From contig CAKKRC010000018.1 of the NCBI GenBank assembly GCA_919902495.1, forward strand, positions 580 to 64,579: DNA of 64,000 bases, in the 5' to 3' direction. Position 1 is the first letter of the stretch. Each line of letters opens with the position of its first letter. This DNA is from Nitrospiria bacterium. Lineage in GTDB: Bacteria; Nitrospirota; UBA9217. A model generated the notes under the pieces. That model worked only from the letters and a program-made list of their open reading frames with translations, was not told the DNA's origin and did not search any database. The position numbers and the translations under genes were made by a program. Below, piece by piece: positions 5,194 through 59,608 of the stretch.

Positions 5194-5250
5194 TATGTTA
5201 TATAATTACGGTATTTTCAGCGCCCACGAGGGCCCATGGAGGGATCACTG

Positions 5251-5952: not shown

Positions 5953-5970
5953 TACGCTAAGAAGAACAGA

Positions 5971-6930
5971 ATGCCCAACAACCGAATCACACATGGTATG
6001 GCCCCGGTGCTCCTGCTGGGGCTTTTGTTTGTCAACTGCACCAGGAGGGAAGAGCCAAAGCAGTCGACACCCTCGCCGGCCGCCGCCCCGGCGATCAAGA
6101 TCCTTGCCACGGTGAACGGCGACCCCATCACCCTGGCCGATCTCCAGGACCGCTTCGCCCGCGCGGGGCTCAAGCCCGAGAAAGAGGCGGAGTTCCAGGT
6201 GAAGGAGGAGTTCCTGAACCGCCTCATCGAGCGGAAGATGATGCTGCGTGAGGCCCAGCGCAGGCGGATCAAGGTCGGCCTGCCGGAGATCAACCAGCGC
6301 ATCGAGGCCATGCGCACCGAGCCGGGCAAGGACGTGAAAGAGACGCTGGGCGGAATGGGGATCGACTATGAGAAGTGGAAGTCCGATATCTGGGAAGACA
6401 TGATGATCGAGAAGCTCCTCGCGCGCGACGTGATCCGGAACGCGCACGTGTCGGCTGCGGAGGTGCGGCGGTACTACAACGAGAATCCCCAGGAGTTCGA
6501 ACGGCCCGAGCAGGTCCGCGTCAGGCAGATCGTCACGGCCACCGAGGACGAGGCCCGGGTGGTCCTTGATCAGCTCCAGAACGAGAAGGCCGATTTCGCC
6601 ACCCTTGCCCGTCAGAAATCAACGGCGCCCGAGGCCGAGGAAGGCGGGAGCCTGGGCTACTTCGCCATGGGAGAGATGCCGGGCGAGTTCAACGTGGTCT
6701 TCGGTCTGCCGAAGGGCGGCATCAGCGGCGTCGTGAAGAGCCCGTATGGATATCATATCTTCAAGCTGGAGGAAAAGCGGCGCGCCGGGAGGGCGGGGCT
6801 CGAGGAGGTCTCCCGGACAATCGCCGAAAAGCTCTCGCGCCAGAAGCAGGATGTCCGCTACAAGCAATGGCTGGGCGAGCTCCGGGGAAGGACCAAGTTC
6901 GTCGTCAATTACCAGGGGCTCCGGCAGTAA
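5971..6930 (+). CDS. peptidyl-prolyl cis-trans isomerase, SurA/PrsA (parvulin) family lipoprotein
   Basis: Signal peptide with lipobox FVNC. SurA-like N-domain. Parvulin domain ...GGSLGYFAMGEMPGEF...SPYGYHIFKLEE. Confidence 0.7.
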   Translation: MPNNRITHGMAPVLLLGLLFVNCTRREEPKQSTPSPAAAPAIKILATVNGDPITLADLQDRFARAGLKPEKEAEFQVKEEFLNRLIERKMMLREAQRRRIKVGLPEINQRIEAMRTEPGKDVKETLGGMGIDYEKWKSDIWEDMMIEKLLARDVIRNAHVSAAEVRRYYNENPQEFERPEQVRVRQIVTATEDEARVVLDQLQNEKADFATLARQKSTAPEAEEGGSLGYFAMGEMPGEFNVVFGLPKGGISGVVKSPYGYHIFKLEEKRRAGRAGLEEVSRTIAEKLSRQKQDVRYKQWLGELRGRTKFVVNYQGLRQ

Positions 6931-7969
6931 GGTCGATGAACCCGCGGCCGTTCCGGATGGTCAGCATCGTCTTGAATTTTGCCGACGCGGCATTGATCTC
7001 ATCAAGCACGCTTTCCGCCTTTGTTCCCGCCAGGACCTTCGGCTGGTACGCCACCCGGTAGTTGTTCACGTCCAGGGGCACTGCCTCGATCCGCACAAGG
7101 GCCTTTCCTTTGAAGGTGCAAAGGAGTATCATGCTCGAGTTCGTTTTATCGCTTTCCGAGCCGAAGACGAAGTTCCCGAGGCTGTAGGCGATCAGCCGGC
7201 CCCGGTAGAGCTCCAGCTCCTGCAGGATATGGGGATGGTGGCCGAGGACGAGATCGGCGCCCCAATCGATGGAACGCCGGCCGAGCTCCCGCTGGTAGTC
7301 CTTGGCGGTGGTCATGAGCTCCGCGCCCCAGTGGAACGAGACCACCACGAGGTCGGCCCGGGGCCGCACCTTCTCGATGTCCCGTTTGACGAACTCCCGG
7401 TATCCGGGGGCGGTGCCGGGCCTTCCTGCCGCGGCGTAGAACTCGATCGGGAAGGTGAGGGAGTAGGACAGGAACGCCAGGGTCAGGTCGCCGACCTTGA
7501 GGAATGCCGGCGCCCGCGCGTCATCGAGATCCATGCCGGCGCCAGCGTAGAGGATATTGTTCTCGCCCAGGGCCTTCAGGGTGTCCTGGAGCGCCAGGGG
7601 CCCGAAGTCCATCGTATGGTTGTTGGCGAGGGACACGACACGGACCCCGGCCGCCTTCAGCGCTTCGACGGCCGCGGGGGCGGCGCGAAGCGTGAACTTC
7701 TTGTTCTCCACCGCGGTACCCCGCGAGGAGATCGGGCTTTCCAGGTTCCCGATGACGAGATGGGCCTGCTGCAGGACGGGCAATACGCCCGCAAAAGGAT
7801 ATCCGGGTCCTTCCCGGGCGAGATAGGGTTCGGCCCGGTGGCCCAGCATGATGTCGCCGACCGCGGCGATGGTGATCTCGTCAGGCGCCGGCAGCCGTTC
7901 CGACGCGGCAACCGCCGCGGCGAGCAGGACGAACACAAGGACCGGGAAAAAGGATCTTCGGAGCGCCAT
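6905..7969 (-). CDS. CapA/PgsA-family metallophosphatase-like protein (poly-gamma-glutamate-synthesis-type)
   Basis: Signal peptide MALRRSFFPVLVFVLLAAAVAA. Motifs GDIMLGH, NLESPIS, SLANNHTMDFG, GHHPH typical of CapA. Convergent with the preceding gene; the 3' ends overlap by 26 nt. Confidence 0.75.
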   Translation of the reverse strand: MALRRSFFPVLVFVLLAAAVAASERLPAPDEITIAAVGDIMLGHRAEPYLAREGPGYPFAGVLPVLQQAHLVIGNLESPISSRGTAVENKKFTLRAAPAAVEALKAAGVRVVSLANNHTMDFGPLALQDTLKALGENNILYAGAGMDLDDARAPAFLKVGDLTLAFLSYSLTFPIEFYAAAGRPGTAPGYREFVKRDIEKVRPRADLVVVSFHWGAELMTTAKDYQRELGRRSIDWGADLVLGHHPHILQELELYRGRLIAYSLGNFVFGSESDKTNSSMILLCTFKGKALVRIEAVPLDVNNYRVAYQPKVLAGTKAESVLDEINAASAKFKTMLTIRNGRGFIDLTAGAPGN

Positions 7970-8022
7970 GACCGTATAGTAATCAGCGCACGGTGAAAAG
8001 GCAACAGAAAAGGACAAAGGAC

Positions 8023-8964
8023 ATGATCAGGACGAGAACAGCGGCTTTATTTCTTTTTGCAGCGTGCGCGTTCTGCGCGATCACCGGCAGTTCCGATGCC
8101 GCGACCGGGCCGGTCGTGGTGGACCGGGTCGTCGCCGTGGTGAACGACGATATCATCACCATGAGCGACCTGCAGCGGGAGCTGAAGAAACGCACGGAGA
8201 TCATCGATCAACGGTTGATGCTCGAGAGCATGATCGACCGGAAGCTCCAGATGATAGCCGCGAAGCGGAGCGGCATCGAGGTTACGGACCGGGAGCTCAC
8301 CGAGGGGATCGACGACATCATGAAACGGAATAATTTGGCCGCGGCGCAGTTCGAGCTGGCCCTGGCGAAGGACGGTCTGACGCTCGAGCAGTACCGTGCC
8401 GAGTTGAAGGAGCAGATGATGCTCTCGCGCCTTTTCAATAAATATGTCCGGACCGGGCTTTCCGTGAACGACGCAGAGGCCCGGGCATACTACGACCTGA
8501 ACGCCAAACAATACTCCCTTCCTGAAGAGGTCAAGGTCCGCCACCTCGTGGCGGCAGTGCCGGAAAAGGCATCTTCCGCCCAGGTCAAGGCCGCCCAGGA
8601 GAAGGCCGCCGCCCTCATGGAGCGCATCCGAAAAGGGGAGGATTTCATCCGCCTTATCCGGGAGCATTCCGGCAGTCCAACGGCCAAGCAGGACGGCGAC
8701 CTCGGCTTCCTGCAGCGCGGCCACGCCATACCGGAGCTGGAGGAAGCGGCAAAGAGCCTCAAGCCCGGCGAGTTCGCCGGCCCGGTCAGGTGCGACGACG
8801 GTTTCCATATCATTCGCGTGGAGGACATCCGCACGCCGGTCCAGCCCTTCGAAAAAGTGAAGGAAGACATCACCCGGATGCTCTTCGAGCAGAAGATGGA
8901 GAACACCTATCGGGCGTTTCTCCAGTCCCTTCGGACCGAATCGCACATCGAGAATCGGCTGTAG
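8023..8964 (+). CDS. peptidyl-prolyl cis-trans isomerase, SurA-like (parvulin)
   Basis: ATG 8023 preceded by AAAGGA. Signal peptide. Parvulin domain ...DGDLGFLQRGHAIPELEEAA...GFHIIRVEDIR. The GTG at 7993 in the ORF track is less likely because it has no RBS. Confidence 0.7.
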   Translation: MIRTRTAALFLFAACAFCAITGSSDAATGPVVVDRVVAVVNDDIITMSDLQRELKKRTEIIDQRLMLESMIDRKLQMIAAKRSGIEVTDRELTEGIDDIMKRNNLAAAQFELALAKDGLTLEQYRAELKEQMMLSRLFNKYVRTGLSVNDAEARAYYDLNAKQYSLPEEVKVRHLVAAVPEKASSAQVKAAQEKAAALMERIRKGEDFIRLIREHSGSPTAKQDGDLGFLQRGHAIPELEEAAKSLKPGEFAGPVRCDDGFHIIRVEDIRTPVQPFEKVKEDITRMLFEQKMENTYRAFLQSLRTESHIENRL

Positions 8965-8966
8965 GA

Positions 8967-9072
8967 CAGACAACAGAGCACAGACGGACAGACAGCAGAC
9001 TGGAGCAAATACGACTTATACAAAATACTGCCAGGTCCGTCTGTTGTCTGAACGTCTGTAGTCTGACGTCTG
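8967..9072. repeat. mirror array: 5x CAGAC (8967-9000), 38-nt spacer, 5x GTCTG (9039-9072), all at 7-8 nt periodicity
   Basis: Read directly: pentamers at 8967, 8974 (CAGAg), 8981, 8989, 8996 and GTCTG at 9039, 9046, 9054, 9061, 9068. The pentamers are conserved but the spacers between them are not. Confidence 0.6.
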
Positions 9073-9083
9073 CTTCCCTTCCC

Positions 9084-10247
9084 ATGAGAACCATAAAACT
9101 GAAAAAGAAAGAAGAGCGCCGCGTCCAGCGCGGACACCCCTGGGTGTTCAGCAATGAGATCCAGGACCTGGCCGCAGACGCCGTTCCGGGCGAACTTGTC
9201 GAGGTCCGTGCGGCCTCCGGCGGGTTCATCGGCAGGGGCTATATTAATCCGCGCTCGCTCATCGCCGTGCGCATTCTGACCAGAGAACAGGAAGACCTCG
9301 ATGCCGCGTTCTTCGCCGGGAGGATCGGCCGGGCGCGTACGCTCAGAACCTCGCTCGGGTTCGGCGATTCGTTCCGCGCTGTCTTCAGCGAAGGGGACGG
9401 GCTTCCCGGGCTCATCGTGGACAAATATGCCGATACGCTCGTGGTCCAGTCGCTCACCGCGGGGATCGACGGCATGCTGGACATCATCCTGAACGCGCTC
9501 CGTGAAGTGTATGATCCGAAGGCCATCGTCCTCAGGAATGACACCGCCTCCCGGGAGATCGAGGGCCTTGCGCTGGAAAAGCGGGTCGCCTTCGGCGAGA
9601 CAACAGGCCTCGTGACCATCGAAGAGTCGGGGATCCGGTATCAGGTGGACGTGCTCGAAGGCCAGAAGACGGGATTTTTCTTCGACCAGCGCGAGAACCG
9701 TCTGGCGCTCCGTGATCTCGTACAAGGGCGGAGGACGCTGGACTGCTTCTGCTATGTGGGGGCGTGGGCGCTCTCAGCGGCGAAGTACGGCGCGACCGAG
9801 GTCGTCGGCATCGATTCCTCGGAGAGGGCGGTGAAGCTCGCGACCGCGAATGCCACACTGAACGGCCTTTCCGCGCGGTTCGTTGTCGGTGACGTGTTCG
9901 AACACTTGCGGGAGTTCGAAAAGAGGAAAGAACGATTCGGGTGCATCATCCTCGACCCGCCGGCGTTCGTGAAGAGCAGGGCCAAGGTGCGGGAGGCGCT
10001 CAAGGGATACAAGGAGATCAATCTCCGCGCCATGCGGATCCTCGAGCCGGGCGGGATCCTCGTCACCTGCTCCTGTTCGCACCACATTGACCAGGAATTG
10101 TTCCGGGAGATGCTGATCGACGCGGCCCATTCCGCCAACAGGCAGGCGCGGCTCCTGGAGATGCGCACCCAGTCCCGCGACCATCCCATGCTGCTTGCCG
10201 CGAAAGAGACCCAGTATCTCAAGTGCGCGATCCTGCAGGTCGATTGA
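9084..10247 (+). CDS. rlmI: 23S rRNA (cytosine-C5)-methyltransferase RlmI-like (PUA + class I SAM MTase)
   Basis: Starts MRTIKLKKKEERRVQRGHPWVF (PUA-like). MTase motifs VVGIDSS and ILDPPAF. The ORF-track start at 8790 is an artefactual N-terminal extension that overlaps the previous gene. Confidence 0.8.
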   Translation: MRTIKLKKKEERRVQRGHPWVFSNEIQDLAADAVPGELVEVRAASGGFIGRGYINPRSLIAVRILTREQEDLDAAFFAGRIGRARTLRTSLGFGDSFRAVFSEGDGLPGLIVDKYADTLVVQSLTAGIDGMLDIILNALREVYDPKAIVLRNDTASREIEGLALEKRVAFGETTGLVTIEESGIRYQVDVLEGQKTGFFFDQRENRLALRDLVQGRRTLDCFCYVGAWALSAAKYGATEVVGIDSSERAVKLATANATLNGLSARFVVGDVFEHLREFEKRKERFGCIILDPPAFVKSRAKVREALKGYKEINLRAMRILEPGGILVTCSCSHHIDQELFREMLIDAAHSANRQARLLEMRTQSRDHPMLLAAKETQYLKCAILQVD

Positions 10248-48251: not shown

Positions 48252-49784
48252 ATGCTTGCCAAGGTCATGAGCGCTGCCGTCCTGGGCATCGACGCCTATC
48301 CTGTCGAGGTGGAGGTCGACATCGCGAGCCGCGGCCTTCCGTTCTTCTCCACCGTGGGCCTGCCCGACGCGGCGGTGAAGGAGAGCAAGGAACGCGTCCG
48401 CGCTGCGCTCAAGAACACGGGGTTCGACTTTCCCCTGAAGCAGGTGGTCGTGAACCTCGCGCCCGCGGACATCAAGAAGGAAGGGTCGGCCTTCGACCTG
48501 CCCATTGCCGTCGGCATGCTGATCGCCGAGGGTGTCCTCACGCAGGAGATGGTGGCGGGCTACCTCATCGTGGGCGAGCTTGCGCTCGACGGCAGGGTGA
48601 AGCCGGTGCGGGGCGCTCTCTCCATGGCGGTGTTTGCAAAGAAGGCGGGCTGCCGCGGCATGATCATCCCTGGCGATAACGCGCCGGAGGCGGCGGTCGT
48701 TGAGCCGGTCCCTGTCTTCGGCGTCCGCACTTTGCCGCAGGTCGTGGAGTTCCTGACCGGCGCGGCGACCATGGAACCCGAACGCGTGAACGTCCGGAGC
48801 ACGTTCGAGACATACTCAGTATATCAGGAGGACTTCGCCGAGGTCCGCGGCCAGGAGCACGCCAAGCGCGCCATCGAGATCGCAGCTGCCGGCGGTCATA
48901 ATATCATTATGATCGGCCCTCCCGGCTCCGGCAAGACCATGCTTGCCCGGCGCCTGCCGTCCATCCTGCCGCAGATGAGCTTCGACGAATCCATCGAGAC
49001 CACCAAGATCCACAGCATCATGGGCCTTCTCCGGCAGGGCCAGCCGCTCATCGCGACGCGGCCCTACCGTTCGCCGCACCACACCATCTCCGACGCGGGG
49101 CTCATCGGCGGCGGCCAGGTCCCCAAGCCCGGCGAGGTGAGCCTGTCGCACAACGGCGTGCTGTTCCTGGACGAGCTTCCGGAGTTCAAGCGCAACGTGC
49201 TTGAAGCGCTCCGCCAGCCGCTCGAGGATGGCCACGTCACCATATCGCGCGCCATTACGTCGCTCACCTATCCGGCCTCGCTCATGCTCGTCGCCGCGAT
49301 GAATCCCTGCAAGTGCGGCTTCCATGGCGATCACCAGCACCCGTGCCAGTGCACACCCCACCAGGTACAGACCTACCGCTCCCGCGTGTCCGGCCCGCTC
49401 ATGGACCGCATCGATATCCACATCGAGGTCCCGGCCATCAAGTTCAAGGAGATCACCTCCGACGTTCCCGGAGAGCCGTCGGTCGCGATCCGCGACCGCG
49501 TTACCTTCGCCCGTTCGGTCCAGCAGGAGCGGTTCAAGACCGACGGCATTTACGCCAACGCCCACATGAAACCCCGCCACATCCGCAAGTATTGCAGGAT
49601 CGACGCCGGCTCCCAGCAGCTCATGGAGGCGGCCATGAACCGCCTCGGCCTGTCCGCCCGGGCCTACAACCGCGTCCTCAAGGTCGCCCGCACTATAGCT
49701 GATATCGAAGGCAGCGGCCCCATAGCGACGGAGCACATCTCCGAGGCCATACAATATCGGAGCCTGGACAGAAGGATAAGCTGA
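48252..49784 (+). CDS. comM: YifB/ComM-family Mg-chelatase-like AAA+ ATPase
   Basis: Lon-protease-like N-terminus. Walker A GPPGSGKT. C-terminal ChlI-like domain. 510 aa. Confidence 0.9.
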   Translation: MLAKVMSAAVLGIDAYPVEVEVDIASRGLPFFSTVGLPDAAVKESKERVRAALKNTGFDFPLKQVVVNLAPADIKKEGSAFDLPIAVGMLIAEGVLTQEMVAGYLIVGELALDGRVKPVRGALSMAVFAKKAGCRGMIIPGDNAPEAAVVEPVPVFGVRTLPQVVEFLTGAATMEPERVNVRSTFETYSVYQEDFAEVRGQEHAKRAIEIAAAGGHNIIMIGPPGSGKTMLARRLPSILPQMSFDESIETTKIHSIMGLLRQGQPLIATRPYRSPHHTISDAGLIGGGQVPKPGEVSLSHNGVLFLDELPEFKRNVLEALRQPLEDGHVTISRAITSLTYPASLMLVAAMNPCKCGFHGDHQHPCQCTPHQVQTYRSRVSGPLMDRIDIHIEVPAIKFKEITSDVPGEPSVAIRDRVTFARSVQQERFKTDGIYANAHMKPRHIRKYCRIDAGSQQLMEAAMNRLGLSARAYNRVLKVARTIADIEGSGPIATEHISEAIQYRSLDRRIS

Positions 49785-49889
49785 GCATATCCACCTCGCG
49801 TTTCTTATGTAATTCTCCGCGAAAACCCTACCTACCCGTTCGGGTAGTCGCATCCCCTTAAAATACCCCGACCAAGAACACATAAATAG

Positions 49890-49918
49890 TTGACACTCAC
49901 AATAAAGCTGTATATTAT
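49890..49918 (+). promoter_or_regulatory. consensus sigma70 promoter TTGACA-17-TATTAT upstream of the Rhs gene
   Basis: -35 at 49890-49895, -10 at 49913-49918, in an AT-rich tract. About 130-nt leader to ATG 50055. Confidence 0.55.
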
Positions 49919-50054
49919 CGATTGCACATCACGTAACTACTCACCGCGAAAATTCTTTTCAGCATTAATCAATATCACAGGCATCATCTTAAGATCCATA
50001 TTGCCAGCTAATGACGGCGAATTGCAATCACGCATTGTTACCCGGGGGGGAGAC

Positions 50055-53000
50055 ATGAAGAAGCAAGGCTATGCGTCCGCAGTACTATTGTTCATTCTGT
50101 GCATATCTCAAATGTATGCAATACCTGCCATGGCGAAAGACGGCTACCGCACTGTTGTCATCGATCAGGCCGGCGATCGCGTATTTGCAGTGAACAACGA
50201 CACAGAAGGCATCGACGTCATTGATGCAAAGACAGGGGCGCTTGTTTCCTCTATTCTCTCACGTGCCGATATCGAGGTGTTGGCTCTCGATGAACAGCGC
50301 AAATTGCTCGCAGCGGGAGGAGAGCACGGCGTCAGCATCATTTCAACAGAAACACTTGCTGTCCTGTCGACCATCCGGGTCTCCGGCGAGCCCACTGCCA
50401 TCGCCATTGATCCGACCCTCGGCTATCTTCTGATCGCCGCTGAACATGGAAAACTTTCGATCGTTGATCTCATGGCATTGCGAGTTATTACGGAGATCGA
50501 ACTGCTGGACAAGCCGGTGTCCATCGCTGTTGATCCGACGCTTCATCGCGCAATTGTAGCTCACCACACTTGGGGCAAAGGTTCGGATAGGAAAAAGAGT
50601 GAAGAGGAAAAGATACGCGACAATATATCGATCATTGATCTCTCTACCCTGTCCGTAGTGGCTACTCTTCTTGCCGGAAAAGAACCTGTCGATGTCGACG
50701 TTAATCCCATCACGCACGAAGCCGCAGTCGCGAACGAAAAGAGCGATGATGTCACGCTCATTGATCTTGGGACCGTGAGCGTTAAGGGCACGATCCCCGT
50801 TGATAAGCACCCTTCAGCGCTTTACTACAACAGCTGTCTGAACACGCTCGCCGTAGTCGGCGGAGAAGACAGGTCATGGCTCAGGGTCATCGATCCGGCG
50901 ACACAGGACGTCCAGGTTGTCTCTCGATATCATGATAAGCTTTATGACATAGGGATCCATAACTCGTTGAACAAGGCTGTCCTGGCCGGCAAGTCGAGAA
51001 TCCAATTCGTTGCTCTCCCGAATCCCATACCTCATCTTGACGCTATCTTCCCTAATAAGGCGCTCCGGGGCGGCGGACCATTCGAGATAACGTTAAGCGG
51101 AACAGGGCTTTTGGCTTCAACCGAGGTTTACCTGAACGGCATAAAGGCCGAATCTTCGTTCAAGGCCTGCGGCACGATCACTATTTCGATTTCTGCCACC
51201 CTTCTTGATAATGCCGGAACCATAGAGATCAAAGCGACAAACCCCGCTCCCCAAGGCGGAACGTCGAATATCCTGCTCCTCGCTGTTGAAAATCCTGTTC
51301 CCTCGATCCTGGCGCTCCAACCGACCCAGGCCGCCGCCGGTTCCCTGGATTTAACGCTCACTATCATCGGGAGCGGATTTTTCCCGAATACGCAATTCTT
51401 CATAAACAGCACACCTCGTGCGTTCACGTATCTCAGCGCAACAACGATCCAGACGCAACTGACCGCCGTTGAGCTCGAGACGGGACGCTATATCACCATT
51501 TCCGCGGTCAACCCCCAGCCAGGCGGCGGATCGTCTCTACCGTCCACCTTTACCGTGTTGAATCCCGTTCCAGCGATCTCGTCACTCTCTCCCGCTGAAT
51601 TGACCGCCGGCAGCTCAGACACGACAGTTACGATCACCGGCGACAATTTTGTTATGGGTTCGTCCGTGCTGTTGAACGGACAGCCGATCGCTACCAAATA
51701 CGTCGGAAAAACCAGCATCGAAACCACCCTCGCCGCTGCCCAGCTGGCAAACCCGGGCAGCTTTGCTGTCGAAGTTAGCAATCCCGTGCCCGGAGGCGGA
51801 TCGTCTCCGGCGGTGTCCCTCCTGGTTAAACCGGCAGGCAACAAACCTGACCCGTTGCCCGACGGCAGTTTCGGAAAACAGTACGAGGACCTTGTTCCGA
51901 CGAACGCAACGATCAAAGCCTATGATCCGAAGCGTTTCTCCATCGTGACCGGCCTGATCACCGACAGGACCGGGAATCCCGTTTCCGGTATCCAGGTCTC
52001 GATCCACGGTCACGCCGAATATGGCTCCGCCACGACCGACAATAACGGCAGATATTCGCTTCCCCTCGACGGCGGAACAACATTCACGATGGTCTATCAG
52101 ATGACGGGCCTCATTACGAGCCACCGGCAGGTCTATGTGCCCTGGAACGATATTGCCATCAGCGAGACAGTCACCCTGATCGCCGCGGATTCGAAAGCAA
52201 CCACGGTCACCTTCGACGGTAATCCGACTACGGTGGTGACGCACCGGAGCACACCGGTCACTGATTCCTTCGGCAGCCGGTCCATGACCATGGTATTTAC
52301 CGGCGACAACCACGCGTATGTGACCGACGAGAACGGTTTAGAAACGATCGCAACAACGATTACCACCCGCGCCACGGAGTTCGACACGCCCGAGAGCATG
52401 CCAGCGGTGCTCCCGCCGACCTCGGCTTACACTTACTGCGCCGAACTGTCAGCCGACGGTGCTAAGCATGTTCGCTTCGAGAAACCCGTCGTCACTTATG
52501 TGGAAAACTTCCTGGGCTTTCCCGTCGGCTCGATCGTTCCAGTGGGCTACTACGATCGGGCGAAGGGAACGTGGGTCGCCTCCGACAACGGTGTAGTCGT
52601 GAGGCTGCTTGATACGAACGGCGATGGTATCGTGGATGCCCTGGACAGTACGGGGGACAGCCTGCCGGACGACCTGAACAATGATGGATCGTTCATCGAT
52701 GAGGTAAAGGGCCTCTCCGATGCTGGTATATTCAATCCGGGCGGTACGTACTGGCGCGTTAGCGTCAATCATTTCACCCCGTACGACCACAACTGGCCCT
52801 ATGGACCGCCTGAAGATGCAATTGATCCAAATCCTGAGAGAGATCCGGTCCAAGACAAACAACAACCATGCGATGCCGTTGATTATACCAGCTCCTATTG
52901 CGAGAGAAAGAGCAGAGTGTTTCATGAAGATGTGTCCCTAGCTGGAACAGACATGACGCTGCATTATGCAAGTAACAGAGTACAAGGCTATAAAACGGTT

Positions 53001-56000
53001 ATTTCGATACCCGCAAGCGGACCAACGCTTCCAGGAAGCCTCAAAAGTATTATCGTTCGCATGGAGCTAAGCGGGCGCGTTTTCCAGAGAGTTCTTTCAC
53101 CACGACCGAATCAATCGGTTGAGTTCATTTGGGATGGCCTTGATCATCTTGGGAGACGAGTAATCGGTCCTAAACACGCAAATATAAGCATCGGTTATGG
53201 CTATACATTGGTCTACTATTCTGCGCGGAGTGACGTTCTGTCCTCATGGGCAAGAGTGGGCGATTGGTCACTCGCTATCCCGGGTCGCCAGGACATTATC
53301 GTATGGAAACACAGCAAAATATATGTCCATCGCGATGAGTATCGTTCGGTCGTCAAGGGCTGGACATTGTCTAAGCATCATCATATGACGCCATGGGCCC
53401 CGAATTTGTTGATCAAGGGCGATGGCACAACGATTGACAACCGAGTGCGAACTATTTCGACTATCGCGGGGAATTTCCAACAAGGATACAGCGGCGATGG
53501 TGTTCCTGCCACTCAAGCGAGCTTATATCAGCCTGCGGGTGTAATCGCGGATAAGGCGGGCAACATTTTATTTGCTGATCATTTTAATGATCGGATCCGC
53601 ATGGTGGATACATCCGGAATCATATCGACTGTCGCCGGAAATGGGCGGACGGGATTCAGCGGAGACGGCGGACTTGCAGTAGAGGCGAGCCTGATGTATC
53701 CGACCGGCGTTGCACTGGATAATTACGGCAACCTTTATATTGCAGATGGCGGAAACTCACGAATACGAAAAGTCGACTCTGCGGGAATTATCACAACGAT
53801 AGCCGGCATTGGCCAATATGGATATGGCGGCGACGGAGGCCCAGCTGTGCAGGCGGCGCTCTTTTATCCGAGCGGCGTAGCCGTCGACCGGGAGGGTAAT
53901 GTCTATATTGCCGACTTGGGAAACAGCAGAGTAAGAATAATGGATGCCAGCGGAATAATCCGCACGTTCGCCGGCAATGGAGAGATGTTTTCCTTCAGCG
54001 GCGACGGCGGCCGCGCTGAGGAGGCTGGATTAAGCTATCCCAGCGGTGTAGCGGTTGACGGCAGCGGGAACGTATATATTGCCGATCGATATAACGGACG
54101 GATCAGGAAAGTTGATGTCCGGGGGATAATCACAACCATTGCAGGATCGGGCGACTGGTGGTCCTATAATGGAAATAGCGGAGATGGCGGACCGGCAGTT
54201 GAGGCCTTCATGGTTCCCGAGGCGGTAGCGTTGGATAGCGTGGGGAATATTTATGTTGCTGATCAGGGTCTAAATACAATAAGAAAGATCAATACGAGTG
54301 GAATTATCACAACGATTGCTGGTAATGGAGAATATGGGTATGGTGGGGATGGCGGTCTATCGACGAAAGCTCAGCTCTATTATCCTACAGGAGTGGCCGT
54401 TGATCCGGCGTCAAATGTGTATATCGCGGATTCGTATAGTAATAAAATCCGCAAGATTTCGGAGCTTAACGTCTTCGCGTTACATGTGGTCGAAGGCGAT
54501 ATACCGTTCGCCGATGAAAACGGTTTGGGATACATCATGGGCAGCACCGGTCTGCACAAGAAAACAATCGATCTCGCATCGGGAATTACCCTGCTCGATT
54601 TCGGTTATAATACCAGGGGCGAATTAATATCAATAACAGATCGCTTCGGGAGTCAAACATCGATCCAATGGAATGCAGCAGGAACGATATCGTCCATTAC
54701 GTCGCCTGATGGTATTGTTACCAGCCTGACCGTAGATGGCAACACTCATCTGACAAACATCTCTTATCAGGACGGTTCCTCATATGCTTTCGGCTATACC
54801 GCCGATGGTTTAATGACCGATGAGTATGATCGCAGAAACAACCACTTCATCCACCAATACGCTCCAGCGAGCGGCAGAATCACCTCGATTATCGACCCGG
54901 AGTCCGGCCGCTGGGATTACGAGCACTACACCGATGCAACAGGCACGGTTTTTTCATCAATGCGAACGGCAGAGGGCAATATAATATCCTATCGCGATAA
55001 AGAGGACCTCGCAGGCGCGTACACTTCAGCGCAGACGGACGCTCGGGGTGAAACCACTACGACAACCCTGATGTTGGATGGATTTAGCGCGACGCAAACT
55101 GACGCCTGCGGCGTGAAGAAAGAGACGACCTTTGATATAGATTCGGCTTTTTTCAGCCGATATGAGACCGCATCAGTGGTAACTACGCCAGCAGGGCTTT
55201 CGCGGTCAAGGAACATCAGCAAGTCGTATGCTGATACCAATGCTGACAATATTCCCGATATCAGCATCAAAACGGTTTCCTTGAATGATAAAATATGGCT
55301 GGATGAAATCAATGTCATAGCAGGGACTCGTCGAACGACAACACCACAGGGAAGAAACAGAACGACGATTCATAATCCTTCTAATCTTTTAATTACATCA
55401 ATTGAAACAACGGGTCTCTATTCGGCGATGTTCGGTTACGATTTCCGCGGTCGGCTGACGTCAGCTACCACTGGCAGCAGAACAAGTATTATTGCCTACG
55501 ATGCTTTTGGGCACTACGATTACATCATAACGCCCGATAACCGGAAGTTCGATTATTCTTATGACAGGATGGGGAATCTGCGCTCCCTGCAGCAGCCAGA
55601 CGGTTCCGTGATCAGGTATGATTACGACTTGAGCGGCAATATGACCGTGCTCACGAACGCCAAGAGCGTCACGAATACCTTCAATTACACCGCCAACGAC
55701 CAACGGAAGACCTGGACCACGCCGTTGTCAGGCAGTTATACCTACACGTTCGACAAAGAGCGGAAGCTCAAGACGGTTACCTATCCCTCGGGAAGGGTGC
55801 TCAGCAACACCTATACGAATGGTCTCTTGGCTGGTATGACGACTCCGGAAGGCTCGACTACGTACAGCTATGGATGTTCGGGTCAGCTTTCCGGCGCCGT
55901 GCGCGGTTCTGAGTCGATAGCGTTTACCTATGACGGCTCGCTCATCAAAACCGACTCGCGAGTCGGGACCGTGGGCCAGGCGATCAGCTATACATACAAC

Positions 56001-57431
56001 AACGATTTCAATTTGTCGTCGATTACCTATGCCGGAGTTACGCAGAGCCTCGGCTATGACAACGACGGCCTTTTAATCTCAGCTGCTCCTTACGCCATCA
56101 CCCGGAACGCCCAGAACGGCCTGCCCGAGATGGTTGGAGACGGCAATCTGACACTTTCGAGAACCTTTAGTGGCTACGGCGAGCTTGACCAGAGCGTTTA
56201 TGCCGTGAGCGGAACCCCGCTCTACAGTTGGACCCTTTCACGCGACAACGCAGGCCGGATTACTCAGAAAATAGATGTCATGCCGCTGGGAGGTGTTGTC
56301 TGGGATTACGCTTACGATACCTTGGGCCGGCTGAAGGAAGTGAAGCAGAGCGGCAGTATCGTCGAAAGCTATGAGTACGACGCAAACGGCAACAGGACCT
56401 TCGAAACGAACACTTTCCGGGGAACGAGCAACAGGGCCTATGCCTACTCGCTCGAAGACCATGTCCTGACCGCCGGGCAGGACACCTACCAGTTTGATGC
56501 AGACGGCTTCCTGACGAGAAGAACAACCTCAGCAGGAACGGCTACCTTCACCTATTCATCACGAGGTGAGCTTCTAAGCGCTGCATTGCCTGACGGCAGG
56601 GTGCTCACCTACGACCACGACCCCATGGGCAGGAGAATCGCGAAGCGGGTGAATGGCACGATCATCGAGAAATATCTCTGGCAGGGCGCGACCCGTCTCC
56701 TGGCGGTATACGACAACAGCAACAACCTCGTCATGCGGTTTACCTATGCCGACGGACGGATGCCGGTGTCCATGACAAAGGGTGGTATCACGTACTATCT
56801 CTTCTACGACCAGATCGGCTCGCTCAGGGCGGTTGTGGACGGCAGTGGACAGATCGTAAAGGAAATGGTGTATGATTCCTTCGGGTATATGTATAATGAA
56901 AGCAATCCGGCGTTTACGGTGCCGTTTGGATTTGCTGGGGGGCTCTATGACCGTGATACAGGACTCGTTCGTTTCGGAGCCAGGGATTACGATCTAGCCA
57001 TCGGCAGGTGGACTGCCAAGGACCCCATAGATTTTGCGGGCGGAGACACAAATCTATTTGAGTATGTCTTTTCAAGTCCGATTAATTATACCGATAGTCT
57101 TGGACTAGTGGCTAGATGGCTGGTTCCCGATTCCATAATTAACAACTCACAACAAGTCGTAAATAGGGTAACAAACAATGCTTTTAGCAAAGAGGAATTA
57201 GCGAAATTAACCAATTTGGTCATAAAAAATATTGGGTATCTTGATGCTATACAATTTCAAAAAGTATGGTTTGATACCCAAGGAAATGTTCCGCTCACAA
57301 ATAAGCAAAAAAATATTCTTGACAACTTGTTTAACGAGCTTCTGAATGATGCTGATAATCAGGATTTAATTATGAAAGCCTACGAAGAATATCTTAAAGC
57401 GTTTGAGGAGAAAAAATGCTATCTAAAATGA
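50055..57431 (+). CDS. teneurin-like Rhs/YD-repeat polymorphic toxin (beta-propeller repeats, Ig-like repeats, NHL propeller, YD shell, Rhs core, variable C-terminal tip)
   Basis: GGGGGGAG RBS. Signal peptide MKKQGYASAVLLFILCISQMYAIPAMA. Three ~95-aa tandem repeats each ending NPxPGGGSS. Seven NHL repeats (GDGGxA..YPxGVAVDxxGNVYIAD..RIRK). Many YD motifs. Rhs core end DPIDFAGGDTNLFEYVFSSPINYTDSLGL at 57093-57107, followed by a 108-aa low-GC tip. Confidence 0.85.
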   Translation: MKKQGYASAVLLFILCISQMYAIPAMAKDGYRTVVIDQAGDRVFAVNNDTEGIDVIDAKTGALVSSILSRADIEVLALDEQRKLLAAGGEHGVSIISTETLAVLSTIRVSGEPTAIAIDPTLGYLLIAAEHGKLSIVDLMALRVITEIELLDKPVSIAVDPTLHRAIVAHHTWGKGSDRKKSEEEKIRDNISIIDLSTLSVVATLLAGKEPVDVDVNPITHEAAVANEKSDDVTLIDLGTVSVKGTIPVDKHPSALYYNSCLNTLAVVGGEDRSWLRVIDPATQDVQVVSRYHDKLYDIGIHNSLNKAVLAGKSRIQFVALPNPIPHLDAIFPNKALRGGGPFEITLSGTGLLASTEVYLNGIKAESSFKACGTITISISATLLDNAGTIEIKATNPAPQGGTSNILLLAVENPVPSILALQPTQAAAGSLDLTLTIIGSGFFPNTQFFINSTPRAFTYLSATTIQTQLTAVELETGRYITISAVNPQPGGGSSLPSTFTVLNPVPAISSLSPAELTAGSSDTTVTITGDNFVMGSSVLLNGQPIATKYVGKTSIETTLAAAQLANPGSFAVEVSNPVPGGGSSPAVSLLVKPAGNKPDPLPDGSFGKQYEDLVPTNATIKAYDPKRFSIVTGLITDRTGNPVSGIQVSIHGHAEYGSATTDNNGRYSLPLDGGTTFTMVYQMTGLITSHRQVYVPWNDIAISETVTLIAADSKATTVTFDGNPTTVVTHRSTPVTDSFGSRSMTMVFTGDNHAYVTDENGLETIATTITTRATEFDTPESMPAVLPPTSAYTYCAELSADGAKHVRFEKPVVTYVENFLGFPVGSIVPVGYYDRAKGTWVASDNGVVVRLLDTNGDGIVDALDSTGDSLPDDLNNDGSFIDEVKGLSDAGIFNPGGTYWRVSVNHFTPYDHNWPYGPPEDAIDPNPERDPVQDKQQPCDAVDYTSSYCERKSRVFHEDVSLAGTDMTLHYASNRVQGYKTVISIPASGPTLPGSLKSIIVRMELSGRVFQRVLSPRPNQSVEFIWDGLDHLGRRVIGPKHANISIGYGYTLVYYSARSDVLSSWARVGDWSLAIPGRQDIIVWKHSKIYVHRDEYRSVVKGWTLSKHHHMTPWAPNLLIKGDGTTIDNRVRTISTIAGNFQQGYSGDGVPATQASLYQPAGVIADKAGNILFADHFNDRIRMVDTSGIISTVAGNGRTGFSGDGGLAVEASLMYPTGVALDNYGNLYIADGGNSRIRKVDSAGIITTIAGIGQYGYGGDGGPAVQAALFYPSGVAVDREGNVYIADLGNSRVRIMDASGIIRTFAGNGEMFSFSGDGGRAEEAGLSYPSGVAVDGSGNVYIADRYNGRIRKVDVRGIITTIAGSGDWWSYNGNSGDGGPAVEAFMVPEAVALDSVGNIYVADQGLNTIRKINTSGIITTIAGNGEYGYGGDGGLSTKAQLYYPTGVAVDPASNVYIADSYSNKIRKISELNVFALHVVEGDIPFADENGLGYIMGSTGLHKKTIDLASGITLLDFGYNTRGELISITDRFGSQTSIQWNAAGTISSITSPDGIVTSLTVDGNTHLTNISYQDGSSYAFGYTADGLMTDEYDRRNNHFIHQYAPASGRITSIIDPESGRWDYEHYTDATGTVFSSMRTAEGNIISYRDKEDLAGAYTSAQTDARGETTTTTLMLDGFSATQTDACGVKKETTFDIDSAFFSRYETASVVTTPAGLSRSRNISKSYADTNADNIPDISIKTVSLNDKIWLDEINVIAGTRRTTTPQGRNRTTIHNPSNLLITSIETTGLYSAMFGYDFRGRLTSATTGSRTSIIAYDAFGHYDYIITPDNRKFDYSYDRMGNLRSLQQPDGSVIRYDYDLSGNMTVLTNAKSVTNTFNYTANDQRKTWTTPLSGSYTYTFDKERKLKTVTYPSGRVLSNTYTNGLLAGMTTPEGSTTYSYGCSGQLSGAVRGSESIAFTYDGSLIKTDSRVGTVGQAISYTYNNDFNLSSITYAGVTQSLGYDNDGLLISAAPYAITRNAQNGLPEMVGDGNLTLSRTFSGYGELDQSVYAVSGTPLYSWTLSRDNAGRITQKIDVMPLGGVVWDYAYDTLGRLKEVKQSGSIVESYEYDANGNRTFETNTFRGTSNRAYAYSLEDHVLTAGQDTYQFDADGFLTRRTTSAGTATFTYSSRGELLSAALPDGRVLTYDHDPMGRRIAKRVNGTIIEKYLWQGATRLLAVYDNSNNLVMRFTYADGRMPVSMTKGGITYYLFYDQIGSLRAVVDGSGQIVKEMVYDSFGYMYNESNPAFTVPFGFAGGLYDRDTGLVRFGARDYDLAIGRWTAKDPIDFAGGDTNLFEYVFSSPINYTDSLGLVARWLVPDSIINNSQQVVNRVTNNAFSKEELAKLTNLVIKNIGYLDAIQFQKVWFDTQGNVPLTNKQKNILDNLFNELLNDADNQDLIMKAYEEYLKAFEEKKCYLK
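57108..57431 (+). other. Rhs C-terminal variable (toxin) tip, ~35% GC, no recognisable motif
   Basis: Begins directly after DSLGL. By eye, composition changes abruptly from ~60% to ~35% GC. I recognise no known catalytic motif. Confidence 0.6.
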
Positions 57432-57796
57432 AGAATACAGCAAAAGGATGGCTAGTAACTTTATTGCTAGGCATTTCTTGTGGGACTATATTCTTTTATT
57501 TACTCAAAACACTCCCGTCGAAGTATGCAGATATGTTGTTTTATTTATTTGGCCTCCAATATTTAGTAGCGGCATTAGTTGTCGACAATAGTTCGATTTA
57601 TTACTTATTATTTTCCATATTGCATTTCATTATAATATTTCGATTGTGTTTCTGGTTAGTACGCAAAGAGCTTTCCGTGCGACAGTGGGCATTGGCTATA
57701 TTTGGTTATTTAATTTTTAGCATTTCTATCTTTATTGGATCGGCGTACATTTTTTTCCATTATGTTATGCGAATAGGTGAAACCATTTCGCAATAA
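57416..57796 (+). CDS. 4-TM small membrane protein, candidate cognate immunity protein
   Basis: ATG overlaps the toxin stop codon region. AT-rich like the tip. Four hydrophobic helices. Confidence 0.55.
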   Translation: MLSKMKNTAKGWLVTLLLGISCGTIFFYLLKTLPSKYADMLFYLFGLQYLVAALVVDNSSIYYLLFSILHFIIIFRLCFWLVRKELSVRQWALAIFGYLIFSISIFIGSAYIFFHYVMRIGETISQ

Positions 57797-57842
57797 TTAT
57801 CAAGTATATTTTCTATTCAGAACAGCAAAATCGGATTGATAG

Positions 57843-57874
57843 GTGCGTATGGGGTCCGGTGCGTATGGGGTCCG
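57843..57874. repeat. tandem direct repeat 2 x GTGCGTATGGGGTCCG (16 nt)
   Basis: Read directly: identical units at 57843-57858 and 57859-57874, GC-rich in an AT-rich context. Confidence 0.7.
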
Positions 57875-57896
57875 ACTTGAATCTGTAGTTATTGCT

Positions 57897-58400
57897 TCAC
57901 ACCCGATCATTTCGAGTAAGGAATGACTGTATCCTCTCGATGTTCTTCCTGCTCGGCCGCATCCTTCCGCTCATCCAGTCTGTCAGTTGCTCCGGATCCC
58001 GACCCATCACAGCTCCCAGCCGCTCATAGGACAGACCGTTTACGCGTTTATAGTACTTGAGCCTGCCAATGGTATCCTCCGGGCAGGGGAAGGGGACATA
58101 CCCCAAGAATTGGATCACCGCGGGCATATACTTTAGCTCCGGCTCGGTTCCACGCTCCCAGTTATAAACCGAAGCCTCTGAAACGCCTACCTGTTTTGCA
58201 ACCTGCCGTTGGAATAATCCCAAATCAATTCGACGCTTGCGGATATGGTCTCCGATGGTTCGGGGATTGCCAGTATAACCCCGGGGTGCTATAATCGGCC
58301 GTGGTAATGAAAACCTATATATCGGCCACTCGAAAAAGGTGCCTGAACCCCTGCAAGTGCGGCTTCCATGGCGATCACCAGCACCCGTGCCAGTGCACAC
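57897..58400 (-). CDS. XRE-family HTH regulator; N-terminus runs without a canonical start into the duplicated comM fragment
   Basis: HTH: IGDHIRKRRIDLGLFQRQVAKQVGVSEASVYNWERG. No ATG/GTG/TTG lies within 30 codons upstream of the HTH. The only in-frame Met (58400) is inside the antisense of the comM duplicate, so the 5' end may be disrupted. Confidence 0.5.
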   Translation of the reverse strand: MCTGTGAGDRHGSRTCRGSGTFFEWPIYRFSLPRPIIAPRGYTGNPRTIGDHIRKRRIDLGLFQRQVAKQVGVSEASVYNWERGTEPELKYMPAVIQFLGYVPFPCPEDTIGRLKYYKRVNGLSYERLGAVMGRDPEQLTDWMSGRMRPSRKNIERIQSFLTRNDRV

Positions 58401-58828
58401 CCCACCAGGTACAGACCTACCGCTCCCGCGTGTCCGGCCCGCTCATGGACCGCATCGATATCCACATCGAGGTCCCGGCCATCAAGTTCAAGGAGATCAC
58501 CTCCGACGTTCCCGGAGAGCCGTCGGTCGCGATCCGCGACCGCGTTACCTTCGCCCGTTCGGTCCAGCAGGAGCGGTTCAAGACCGACGGCATTTACGCC
58601 AACGCCCACATGAAACCCCGCCACATCCGCAAGTATTGCAGGATCGACGCCGGCTCCCAGCAGCTCATGGAGGCGGCCATGAACCGCCTCGGCCTGTCCG
58701 CCCGGGCCTACAACCGCGTCCTCAAGGTCGCCCGCACTATAGCTGATATCGAAGGCAGCGGCCCCATAGCGACGGAGCACATCTCCGAGGCAATTCAGTA
58801 CCGGAGCCTCGACAGAAGGATAAGCTGA
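58345..58828 (+). pseudogene. comM: orphan duplicate of the comM 3' end (last 161 codons)
   Basis: Matches 49301-49784 base for base. Exceptions: one synonymous change at the first codon and five synonymous changes clustered in the last 45 nt. The encoded C-terminus is identical. A TATAAT at 58290-58295 and an in-frame ATG at 58307 lie just upstream. Confidence 0.8.
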
Positions 58829-58880: not shown

Positions 58881-59213
58881 ATGAAAACAAGTGGACTGTC
58901 GGAGCATGAAAAGGCCGCCCTTGCGAAGCTGAAGAAGACGCTTGAAGAGCGGTTTAATCTTATTGATTTCCGCGTGTTCGGGTCAAAAGCGCGCGGCGAG
59001 GCTGTTCCCGAATCCGATATCGATGTGATGATTGAGATCGAAGAGTACAACCCGCTGACGGAGTCAGAAATAGACGAATTGGTGTTTAAGATCAACCTAG
59101 AATATGACTGCTTTATATCGGTAGTCATTTTCGGCAGGCGCGAACTTGAAGAGGGGCCCCTGGGAGAATCTCCCCTGTACCGCGTGATCGAAAGAGAGGG
59201 GATCAAGGTTTGA
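58881..59213 (+). CDS. minimal nucleotidyltransferase (MNT) antitoxin
   Basis: FGSKARGEAVPESDIDVMIE, a Pol-beta-type NTase GS..D.D motif. 110 aa. Confidence 0.7.
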   Translation: MKTSGLSEHEKAALAKLKKTLEERFNLIDFRVFGSKARGEAVPESDIDVMIEIEEYNPLTESEIDELVFKINLEYDCFISVVIFGRRELEEGPLGESPLYRVIEREGIKV

Positions 59214-59608
59214 CTGTCGATGAAAAAAGACACGAGCTTGCGCAATATCGCCTCAAGCAGGCTGCGGAAAGCCTGGAAGAAGCTGAGTTCCTCATGTCCG
59301 GAAAAATGAGTCCCCGCTCCATCATCAACAGAGCGTACTATGCCATGTTCTACGCCGTGTTGGCCCTTCTTGTCAATGAGCCGTATGCTTCCTCAAAGCA
59401 TACCGGTGTTCTTGCCTACTTCAACAAAAACTTCATTAAAAGCGGCCTTCTCCCTGAAGCGCTCGGGCGATCCCTTAACAAGGCTTTTGAGTTAAGACAA
59501 CGCGGCGACTACAGGGAATATATCGAGATGACGCACGAGCAGGTCGCGCCGTTTATCGGCGAGGCCCGGAGCTTTATAGCTGCGGTACGGGCTCACCTCG
59601 ATAAATAG
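59210..59608 (+). CDS. HEPN-domain toxin
   Basis: HEPN R-x4-6-H-type motif region (RQRGDYREY). TTG start overlaps the MNT stop. 132 aa. Confidence 0.65.
   Translation: MTVDEKRHELAQYRLKQAAESLEEAEFLMSGKMSPRSIINRAYYAMFYAVLALLVNEPYASSKHTGVLAYFNKNFIKSGLLPEALGRSLNKAFELRQRGDYREYIEMTHEQVAPFIGEARSFIAAVRAHLDK

Follow-up and report, generated by a model that had tools for sequence, protein, structure and literature searches.

What does the short, compositionally aberrant segment at the end of a very large bacterial Rhs protein do, and is the small membrane protein encoded directly behind it its partner? This question is raised by a locus on contig CAKKRC010000018.1 (GenBank assembly GCA_919902495.1) of a Nitrospiria bacterium, which was analyzed here within a stretch of 64,000 nucleotides (positions 580 to 64,579 of the contig, forward strand), referred to below as the window. 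The open reading frame (ORF) at 50055-57431 on the forward strand of the window encodes a protein of 2458 aa that begins with a Sec-type signal peptide (MKKQGYASAVLLFILCISQMYAIPAMA, followed by KDG) and ends with a small domain, the tip, which follows directly on the motif DSLGL. In the NCBI records of this locus (MEK6742768/769/771/774), its product carries no annotation beyond "RHS repeat-associated core domain-containing protein." A gene for a 126-aa protein with four transmembrane (TM) segments overlaps its end. Taken as a whole, the locus is probably a teneurin-like protein (TLP) toxin locus, with a tip that acts at the envelope and a membrane protein that provides immunity.

The description of TLPs appeared in February 2026 (Raoelijaona et al., Nat Commun 2026; PMC13018210) and covers 139 genomes in six phyla. 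They carry Sec signals and the modules BIG, TTR, TIP, FN-plug, NHL, YD-shell, and C-terminal domain (CTD), in that order, with TIP present in 96% of the proteins; the CTD, of approximately 15 kDa, is polymorphic, is cut at the Rhs motif and kept within the shell, and has its immunity gene directly downstream (PMC13018210). The window protein was found to contain FN-plug, NHL, and YD-shell modules in the TLP order, with TTR and TIP both upstream of FN-plug, TIP being recognized by motif matches only (Table 1). Within the TIP-like region, counterparts of the motifs MPAVLPPTSAYTYCAEL, VPVGYYDR, and HFTPYDHNWPYGPP occur among the sequences of the published TLP alignment, the patterns common to residues 709-987 and that alignment being MPAxLPPxSAYTYCAEL, VPVGYYDR, and HF[TS]PxDxNW, and the core motif FGFAGGLYD...RFGARDYD...GRWTAKDP is likewise shared (PMC13018210). 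The cleavage motif of TLPs is PxxxxDPxG, with two Asp residues 24 residues apart and an Arg 13 residues before the first Asp (PMC13018210). Its counterpart in the window protein consists of R2310, D2323 (in DPIDF), and D2347 (in PINYTDSLGL), with a spacing identical to that of R2103, D2116, and D2140 in BiTLP of Bacillus inaquosorum, and the Rhs core ends with DSLGL itself (residues 2347-2351, 57093-57107), in which Ser replaces the Pro after the second Asp. The order of Ig-like, TTR, TIP, FN-plug, NHL, YD-shell, and small CTD modules is also that of BiTLP and of MfTLP from Methylosarcina fibrata, and the window protein further resembles TLPs in its Sec signal, its CTD of approximately 12 kDa (TLP average, approximately 15 kDa), its downstream gene, and its accessory, island-like status. 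On these grounds, we regard it as highly probable that the large protein is a bacterial TLP polymorphic toxin that follows the logic of an exchangeable tip/immunity cassette.

Much of this architecture, namely, a beta-propeller, three Ig-like repeats, an NHL propeller, a YD shell, and an Rhs core that terminates in DSLGL, had been proposed in an earlier note on this sequence, and profile matches confirmed it. The NHL propeller, described there as seven bladed, has six blades by repeat count, and the tip is 107 aa long, the 108 given there being its codons with the stop included. The likeness to teneurins claimed in the earlier note also held and is strengthened by the TTR, TIP-like, and FN-plug modules, which had been missed. 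The TLP class itself was already published in 2026, and the teneurin-like resemblance of the window protein is thus not new. Metazoan teneurins have the superfold of TTR, FN-plug, six-blade NHL, and YD shell in common with the window protein, but they have no active cleavage motif, their uncleaved C-terminus (ABD plus Tox-GHH) is threaded outside the shell, and they carry an N-terminal TM segment and EGF repeats that the window protein lacks. Compared to the published TLPs, the window protein carries a YVTN propeller in addition at its N-terminus, has DSLGL in place of DPxG as its second motif, and starts with a signal that looks like that of signal peptidase I (SPI), whereas Gram-negative TLPs are predicted to have SPII lipoprotein signals. 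Its host phylum, Nitrospirota, is not among the six listed for TLPs.

Three other toxin systems were considered and rejected. A type VI secretion system (T6SS) Rhs effector did not fit, as no PAAR, VgrG, or DUF4150-type match was found, a Sec signal was present instead, and the scanned neighbors include no T6SS genes. The BC component of an ABC (Tc) toxin was set aside because no SpvB/TcdB-mid type Pfam or NCBIfam match was obtained, and a contact-dependent inhibition (CDI) toxin was rejected because the defining N-terminal domains or partner genes of that system are lacking. Tc and two-partner-secretion genes were likewise not found among the scanned neighbors.

The tip is set apart from the rest of the protein by its composition. 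When G+C content (GC) was calculated in 200-nt steps, it was 0.50-0.58 over 55400-57099 and then 0.31-0.36 over 57100-57899, and the lowest 1-kb segment of the 64 kb was 57001-58000, with a GC of 0.376, compared to at least 0.488 in all others. The GC of third codon positions (GC3) falls into tiers of 0.78-0.89 for the host genes, 0.59 for the TLP body, 0.34 for the tip, and 0.35 for the downstream ORF, and the step from 0.59 to 0.34 lies exactly at the DSLGL cleavage motif. A drop at this point from approximately 60% to approximately 35% had been claimed by eye in the earlier note; the sharp drop was reproduced, whereas its starting level was corrected, since GC just before the break is approximately 0.53, the value of 0.60 is the genome background, and the tip is at 0.33. 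The TLP body (50055-57107) is compositionally foreign to the host genes as well. Because this body is foreign to the host and the tip is lower again, the locus shows two nested layers of acquisition, an island first and then the tip cassette.

Neither the tip nor any other member of its family could be assigned to a described domain. Searches of Pfam, NCBIfam, PADLOC, and PHROGs with the tip gave nothing, no member of its family matches any Pfam family, and the family profile had no match among PDB sequences, which agrees with the earlier statement that the tip contains no known toxin motif. A word-indexed homologue search with the tip alone returned nothing, and the same kind of search with a profile of 20 tip sequences returned 3 proteins only. 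The family was revealed solely when 1.84 billion cluster representatives were searched exhaustively with phmmer, 22 matches to the tip being obtained at E<=1e-3, approximately 20 of them credible. Almost every credible match begins directly after DPxGL or DSLGL and extends to the C-terminus. The scaffolds on which these relatives are carried differ: P0012 and P0016 have teneurin-type cores, P0018 (1200 aa), P0015, P0021, and P0023 are classical Rhs/YD proteins, the relative at locus L094 is on a DUF6531-Rhs protein, and P0024 and P0010 are short orphan core-tip modules. A search of this kind for the tip on other Rhs scaffolds had been proposed as a check of the cassette idea. By homology, the tip is a member of a rare, unnamed family of predicted cargo domains, with 22 representatives in 1.84e9. 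A scan with alignment A2 gave no confirmed match in genome or metagenome contigs, and the family motif was not found in the part of the supplementary sequence file of the TLP paper that was covered (PMC13018210). Homologous scaffolds aligned in the TLP paper lose all similarity directly after the D-x-x-G motif (PMC13018210), which is the polymorphism expected at the position of the tip. The window holds one copy each of core, tip, and partner. Fresh, unclassified cargo domains are expected in polymorphic toxins.

The fold of the tip could be predicted with AlphaFold2 when the 20-sequence alignment was supplied (pLDDT 90.7, pTM 0.81), and the model has five helices and a two-stranded sheet in which residues 61-63 are paired with the C-terminal residues 104-106; a single-sequence model was poor (pLDDT 55) and was set aside. 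A Foldseek comparison of the model with PDB and BFVD gave nothing significant and no toxin fold, and the tip had no significant match to a named toxin domain family (Pfam Tox-/Ntox, NCBIfam, or PADLOC) or to a solved toxin fold. The predicted helices are amphipathic, with hydrophobic moments of 0.40-0.59, while the family as a whole is hydrophilic, with a grand average of hydropathicity (GRAVY) of approximately -0.4 and a best 19-residue Kyte-Doolittle mean of at most 1.56 in any member. In the family alignment, Q67 is invariant and P7, N13, F26, A47, and L63 are nearly invariant.

At least one Cys occurs in 18/20 of the tip-family members. The single Cys of the window tip, C2455 (57417-57419), lies three residues from the C-terminus, and GKC or GRC is conserved in approximately half of the family. 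BiTLP has a second autoproteolytic site at a conserved Ser of its FN-plug, and a plug Cys is disulfide bonded to the CTD (PMC13018210). Just upstream of the FN-plug match, the window protein has C939 and C949-ERK-S953 (Cys codons within 52869-52901), and a plug-tip disulfide tether resembling that of BiTLP, via C939/C949 and C2455, would be possible.

The gene directly behind the tip was then compared across the family. In the window, its ATG is preceded at a distance of 5 nt by a GAGGAG Shine-Dalgarno sequence, and the claim that a 126-aa, 4-TM ORF overlaps the toxin stop and shares the low GC was verified in each of its points. The word-indexed database contains no match to this protein other than the protein itself, making it a singleton there. 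A related pair was found on JGI contigs (L004-L006), where the orphan module P0024 carries a tip 67% identical to that of the window, followed by a TM protein of 128 aa with 40% identity to the window partner (E 8e-30), the same MLS start, and the same 16-nt overlap; orphan tip-immunity pairs, proposed as a further check, are thus documented. Between these two pairs, the partner has diverged faster than the tip, and as dS between the cassettes is saturated, no dN/dS value can be given. At L008, a tip truncated by an insertion sequence (IS) is followed by an ORF of the same kind as the 4-TM partner of the window. Other subclades of the tip have other partners (Table 1), those at L093 and L094 being related to each other, and the type of partner follows the tip subclade. 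No partner protein matches Pfam. At every informative locus, however different the partner, the gene immediately downstream of the tip encodes an envelope protein, and a small integral-membrane protein stands in this place in the window, at L004, and at L008 (4-TM) and at L093, L094, L010, and L012 (multi-TM). Coupling geometry and Shine-Dalgarno sequence are conserved across loci. A conserved small tip with a downstream gene that recurs elsewhere is consistent with the CTD/immunity arrangement of TLPs; the toxin-tip/immunity logic put forward in the earlier note thus stands, with a paired downstream gene that is conserved and a tip position that is variable in the published TLP alignment, and its suggestion that the tip is "possibly membrane-acting" has gained indirect support from the envelope proteins found downstream.

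In the mechanism that we propose, the 2458-aa protein would be exported by Sec, as read from its sequence, and its propeller, Ig-like, TTR, and TIP modules would display it on, or bind it to, a cell surface. By analogy with the cryo-electron microscopy structure of BiTLP, the FN-plug, NHL, and YD shell would enclose the 107-aa tip. The Rhs aspartyl protease, whose motif (R2310, D2323, D2347) is present, would cut after L2351 and free the tip as cargo, which, judging from BiTLP and other Rhs structures, would be stored inside the YD shell until delivery. Tip and overlapping 4-TM gene would together be a toxin/immunity cassette that is exchanged horizontally and belongs to a family not named before, in which the tip is probably toxic and the partner probably protective. 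The tip would be a non-enzymatic or atypical, mainly helical toxin whose site of action is the target envelope, most probably the cytoplasmic membrane as reached from the periplasm. There, it would either refold onto or into the bilayer or attach to a target embedded in the membrane, and the polytopic partner would shield the producer within the plane of the membrane. Either route, amphipathic helices that refold on the membrane or a tip that binds a target shielded by the partner, may apply, and we do not rank them.

Action of the tip at the envelope is suggested because the partners are located there and immunity proteins sit where the toxin acts; in the literature, immunity proteins that are in the membrane or secreted mark toxins that act at the envelope. 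The CTD of BiTLP (92 aa) kills E. coli only if it is directed to the periplasm (PMC13018210). For the tip itself, we hold the chances of action at the envelope or membrane to be about even. A bolder version, which we put forward as doubtful, is that the tip represents a novel class of cargo, a hydrophilic helical domain without catalytic residues that would kill via the envelope, either through a membrane-embedded essential target or by refolding like the matrix-protein-like fold that it resembles, and that would be countered by at least two unrelated membrane-immunity families and a lipoprotein family. If this were true, such a mode of action and immunity would fall outside the known pore-former and enzyme paradigms.

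Small membrane proteins are known as immunity partners in other systems, and pore-forming colicins have immunity proteins with 3-4 TM segments. The system of Pseudomonas aeruginosa Tse5 (RhsP1) and Tsi5 also has an Rhs shell with a DPxGL-delimited CTD without predicted enzymatic function; Tsi5 is an integral cytoplasmic-membrane protein, which led to the hypothesis of a membrane target that was later confirmed when Tse5-CT was found to be a pore former (PMC9637101). Tse5 differs in that it is delivered by a T6SS and has a CT of 149 aa with predicted TM and amphipathic helices that forms cation-selective pores (PMC9637101), compared to 107 hydrophilic residues in the tip, and no relation of the tip to Tse5 was detected in sequence or fold. 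The CDI ionophores are comparable to the tip and its partner in being predicted five-helix toxins with small polymorphic membrane CdiI proteins, which are approximately 30-40% identical within a group, but their helices are hydrophobic enough to span the bilayer and their CdiA-CTs have a separate entry domain (PMC11630599), both of which distinguish them from the tip. CDI ionophores and colicins are delivered by CdiB/CdiA or by Tol/Ton import, and no homology of either to the tip was detected. The kinship of the window cassette with Tse5/Tsi5, CDI ionophores, and colicins is one of immunity logic only. Among characterized TLPs, the immunity protein of MfTLP binds an ART toxin, whereas the window partner is a polytopic membrane protein.

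Several observations weigh against a membrane-directed toxin with a membrane immunity protein. The window tip is hydrophilic (GRAVY -0.42, best 19-residue Kyte-Doolittle mean 0.66), and hydropathy analysis found in it no TM or glycine-zipper segment, in contrast to Tse5-CT, the CDI ionophores, the BiTLP CTD, and the pore-forming colicins, so that the hydrophobic or glycine-zipper bilayer-spanning helices of pore-forming and ionophoric toxins are absent. The tip alignment contains no conserved set of His, Asp, Glu, Ser, or Cys residues hinting at catalysis, and because such residues are missing, no mechanism can be read from the tip sequence. The loops of the window partner have at most approximately 9 residues, which makes the binding of a soluble domain by this partner hard to picture. 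A common homology of the partner families is not established by their sequences: between the L093/L094 partners and that of the window, the hhalign probability is 41% and concerns the last TM helix only, and hhalign found no relationship between the window partner family and that of L010/L012. Toxicity of the tip and protection by the partner are themselves sequence-based proposals. No delivery machinery is known for TLPs (PMC13018210).

The same properties bear on an explanation that we consider unlikely but the best of the alternatives, in which the tip would be a toxin of the cytoplasm, a stoichiometric inhibitor or an unrecognized enzyme, and the partner would block its uptake or translocation across the inner membrane. 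A soluble, hydrophilic tip without a TM segment suits this explanation, 2-TM immunity proteins, namely, Imm-CdiI and Imm17, were proposed by Zhang et al. to stop toxin uptake at the membrane, and CDI toxins hijack inner-membrane proteins for entry. The AlphaFold2 model, however, shows the 107 aa of the tip as one compact domain with no separate entry domain, the lipoprotein partner at L011 suits a periplasmic site better, and no nuclease, NADase, deaminase, or similar signature or fold match was found for the tip.

Less probable again is that the tip is not a toxin at all and would be a released signaling, adhesion, or recognition module, with the membrane protein as its receptor or processing partner. 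The lack of catalytic residues and of a toxin fold is compatible with such a role, and 3/9 of the TLP CTDs tested inhibited E. coli; the TLP paper leaves open a role in cell-cell communication and discusses social behavior (PMC13018210). Conversely, the window cassette bears four hallmarks of toxin/immunity systems: its low-GC structure, the occurrence of orphan core-tip and partner modules in arrays beside other Rhs fragments, the swapping of the tip onto unrelated Rhs scaffolds, and a partner that diverges faster (40% identity) than the tip (67%). That the cassette is a decaying or inactive remnant, its low-GC segment and downstream ORF having no current function, as an island without integrase, an HTH gene that looks 5'-truncated, and the great rarity of the tip family might suggest, is scarcely credible given two intact ORFs, coupling geometry and a Shine-Dalgarno sequence that are kept across loci, a tip that folds confidently from a diverse alignment, an intact catalytic core motif, and identical sequence from three independent read sets.

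With an envelope-acting tip and a membrane immunity protein as the preferred explanation, the finding is an incremental advance and not a change of paradigm. The characterization of bacterial TLPs dates from as late as 2026, and for the majority of the cargo domains no function is known; the present locus brings a seventh phylum, Nitrospirota, to the six reported. Since one cargo family is present on teneurin-like as well as on ordinary Rhs shells, the exchange of cassettes between the two types of scaffold is documented directly. The cargo is hydrophilic, yet its partners are located in the envelope at every informative locus, and if the tip is toxic, it would offer a compact 12-kDa probe for a possibly new vulnerability of the envelope as well as a convenient cargo with which to study release from TLP shells. 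A tip without toxicity would bear on the question of whether TLPs also signal between cells.

Table 1. Features of the window locus, in order of position, followed by the genes downstream of related tips at other loci
Feature	Position	Strand	Remarks
Left copy of 485-bp direct repeat	49300..49784	+	3' end of intact comM/yifB (48252-49784), ends at stop codon; Pfam Mg_chelatase
Sigma-70-like promoter candidate	49890..49918	+	TTGACA-17-TATTAT, 11/12; upstream of putative toxin gene; consensus match only
Sec signal peptide, 27 aa	50055..50135	+	Cleavage site between AMA and K; read from translation
YVTN-type beta-propeller repeats, residues ~30-330	50142..51044	+	TIGR02276, 39.9 bits versus 27.85-bit cutoff; weak YncE/WD40-type matches
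Three tandem TIG/CoaZ PGGG Ig-like repeats, ~90 aa each, residues 322-595	51018..51839	+	NF058597, E 4e-58, 3 stretches; Pfam TIG
Teneurin-type TTR, residues 623-708	51921..52178	+	PF25020 (TTR_TEN1-4), 57.3 bits
TIP-like region (teneurin insertion protein domain of bacterial TLPs), residues 709-987	52179..53015	+	No Pfam model; motif matches only
FN-plug, residues 988-1051	53016..53207	+	PF24329 (FN-plug_TEN1-4), 25.9 bits, slightly under 27.8-bit cutoff; position correct
NHL propeller, six blades, residues 1134-1470	53454..54464	+	PF25021 (TEN_NHL), 176.9 bits; six repeat units counted
YD-repeat shell, up to residue 2272	54465..56870	+	TEN_YD-shell 137.4 bits, RHS_repeat, YD_repeat_2x
Rhs-associated core, residues 2273-2351	56871..57107	+	TIGR03696; aspartyl autoprotease motif; predicted cleavage after L2351
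C-terminal cargo domain (tip), 107 aa	57108..57431	+	Unnamed family; predicted mainly helical; hydrophilic
126-aa 4-TM immunity candidate	57416..57796	+	Four hydrophobic segments; 16-nt overlap with putative toxin gene
Perfect 16-bp tandem duplication, GGTGCGTATGGGGTCC x2	57842..57873		Between partner gene and HTH gene
XRE-type helix-turn-helix (HTH) gene	57897..58400	-	Right end of island; ORF extends into comM repeat
Right copy of comM 3' repeat	58344..58828	+	Displaced gene fragment, ends at stop codon
L093, ORF downstream of tip P0010			138 aa, multi-TM; ATGA overlap
L094/L095, ORF downstream of tip P0019			137 aa, multi-TM; ATGA overlap
L010, ORF downstream of tip P0018			158 aa, multi-TM
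L012, ORF downstream of tip P0023			156 aa, multi-TM
L011, gene downstream of tip P0015			171-aa lipoprotein (LIGC lipobox), 3 nt downstream
L096, ORF downstream of tip P0021			64 aa, TM

The putative toxin locus lies on an accessory island that has entered comM in its 3' part. The two copies of the comM repeat differ by 6 mismatches in 485 nt, 5 of these being clustered in the last 40 nt, and they bracket an island of 8.56 kb that contains only the predicted toxin gene with its tip, the TM gene, the 16-bp tandem repeat, and the XRE-type HTH gene; no integrase was found in the island. A misassembly as the source of the comM repeat and the GC drop was ruled out by Logan unitigs from ERR3858120, ERR3858137, and ERR3858138, which cross both junctions and are 100% identical to window 49718-58378 or to part of it. 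The sole conventional start of the HTH ORF is a GTG at 58400, inside the comM repeat, and no in-frame ATG, GTG, or TTG precedes the HTH motif within the island, so that a 5' truncation or a fusion of the gene is possible. The flanking genes are of housekeeping type (chemotaxis, ValRS, NadC, BirA, aconitase, an NlpC/P60 hydrolase, ComM/YifB, and RNase J), and an NTase/HEPN pair lies just downstream of the island at 58881-59608. In a homology scan with ComM, identity reached 66% at best.

A relative with approximately 87-90% nucleotide identity was found at L097, where the HTH gene and the comM fragment are kept and the end of a transposase stands where the cassette would be. Positions 1-136 of L097, upstream of the HTH gene, read like the 3' end of what is presumably an IS256-family transposase (...WKSALNQFTIIFETRMPAL, then a stop), and the contig ends there. 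Because the HTH-comM junction is kept in L097 at approximately 87% nucleotide identity, it predates the split of the two lineages. The 16-mer GGTGCGTATGGGGTCC occurs nowhere else in the window, and the homology to L097 begins just past it, at 57903. The vicinity of comM and RNase J is a variable spot for defense or toxin-antitoxin genes: the window has its NTase/HEPN pair, and L097 has, at 1373-1880 and 4187-9264, BrnT/BrnA, another NTase/HepT pair, an MmeI-type restriction-modification enzyme, and a RAMA protein.

The island on L004-L006, which is unrelated to that of the window, holds this tip/partner cassette in orphan form beside further Rhs fragments and a Y1 (IS200-like) transposase that has a DnaA_C-like HTH. 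A 157-bp repeat derived from the bipA 3' end flanks it on both sides (L005 3776-3931 and 8995-9150); this repeat, too, ends at the stop codon, and its copies are identical at 152/156 positions. The geometry shared by the comM and bipA islands suggests a common route of island entry into the 3' ends of housekeeping genes.

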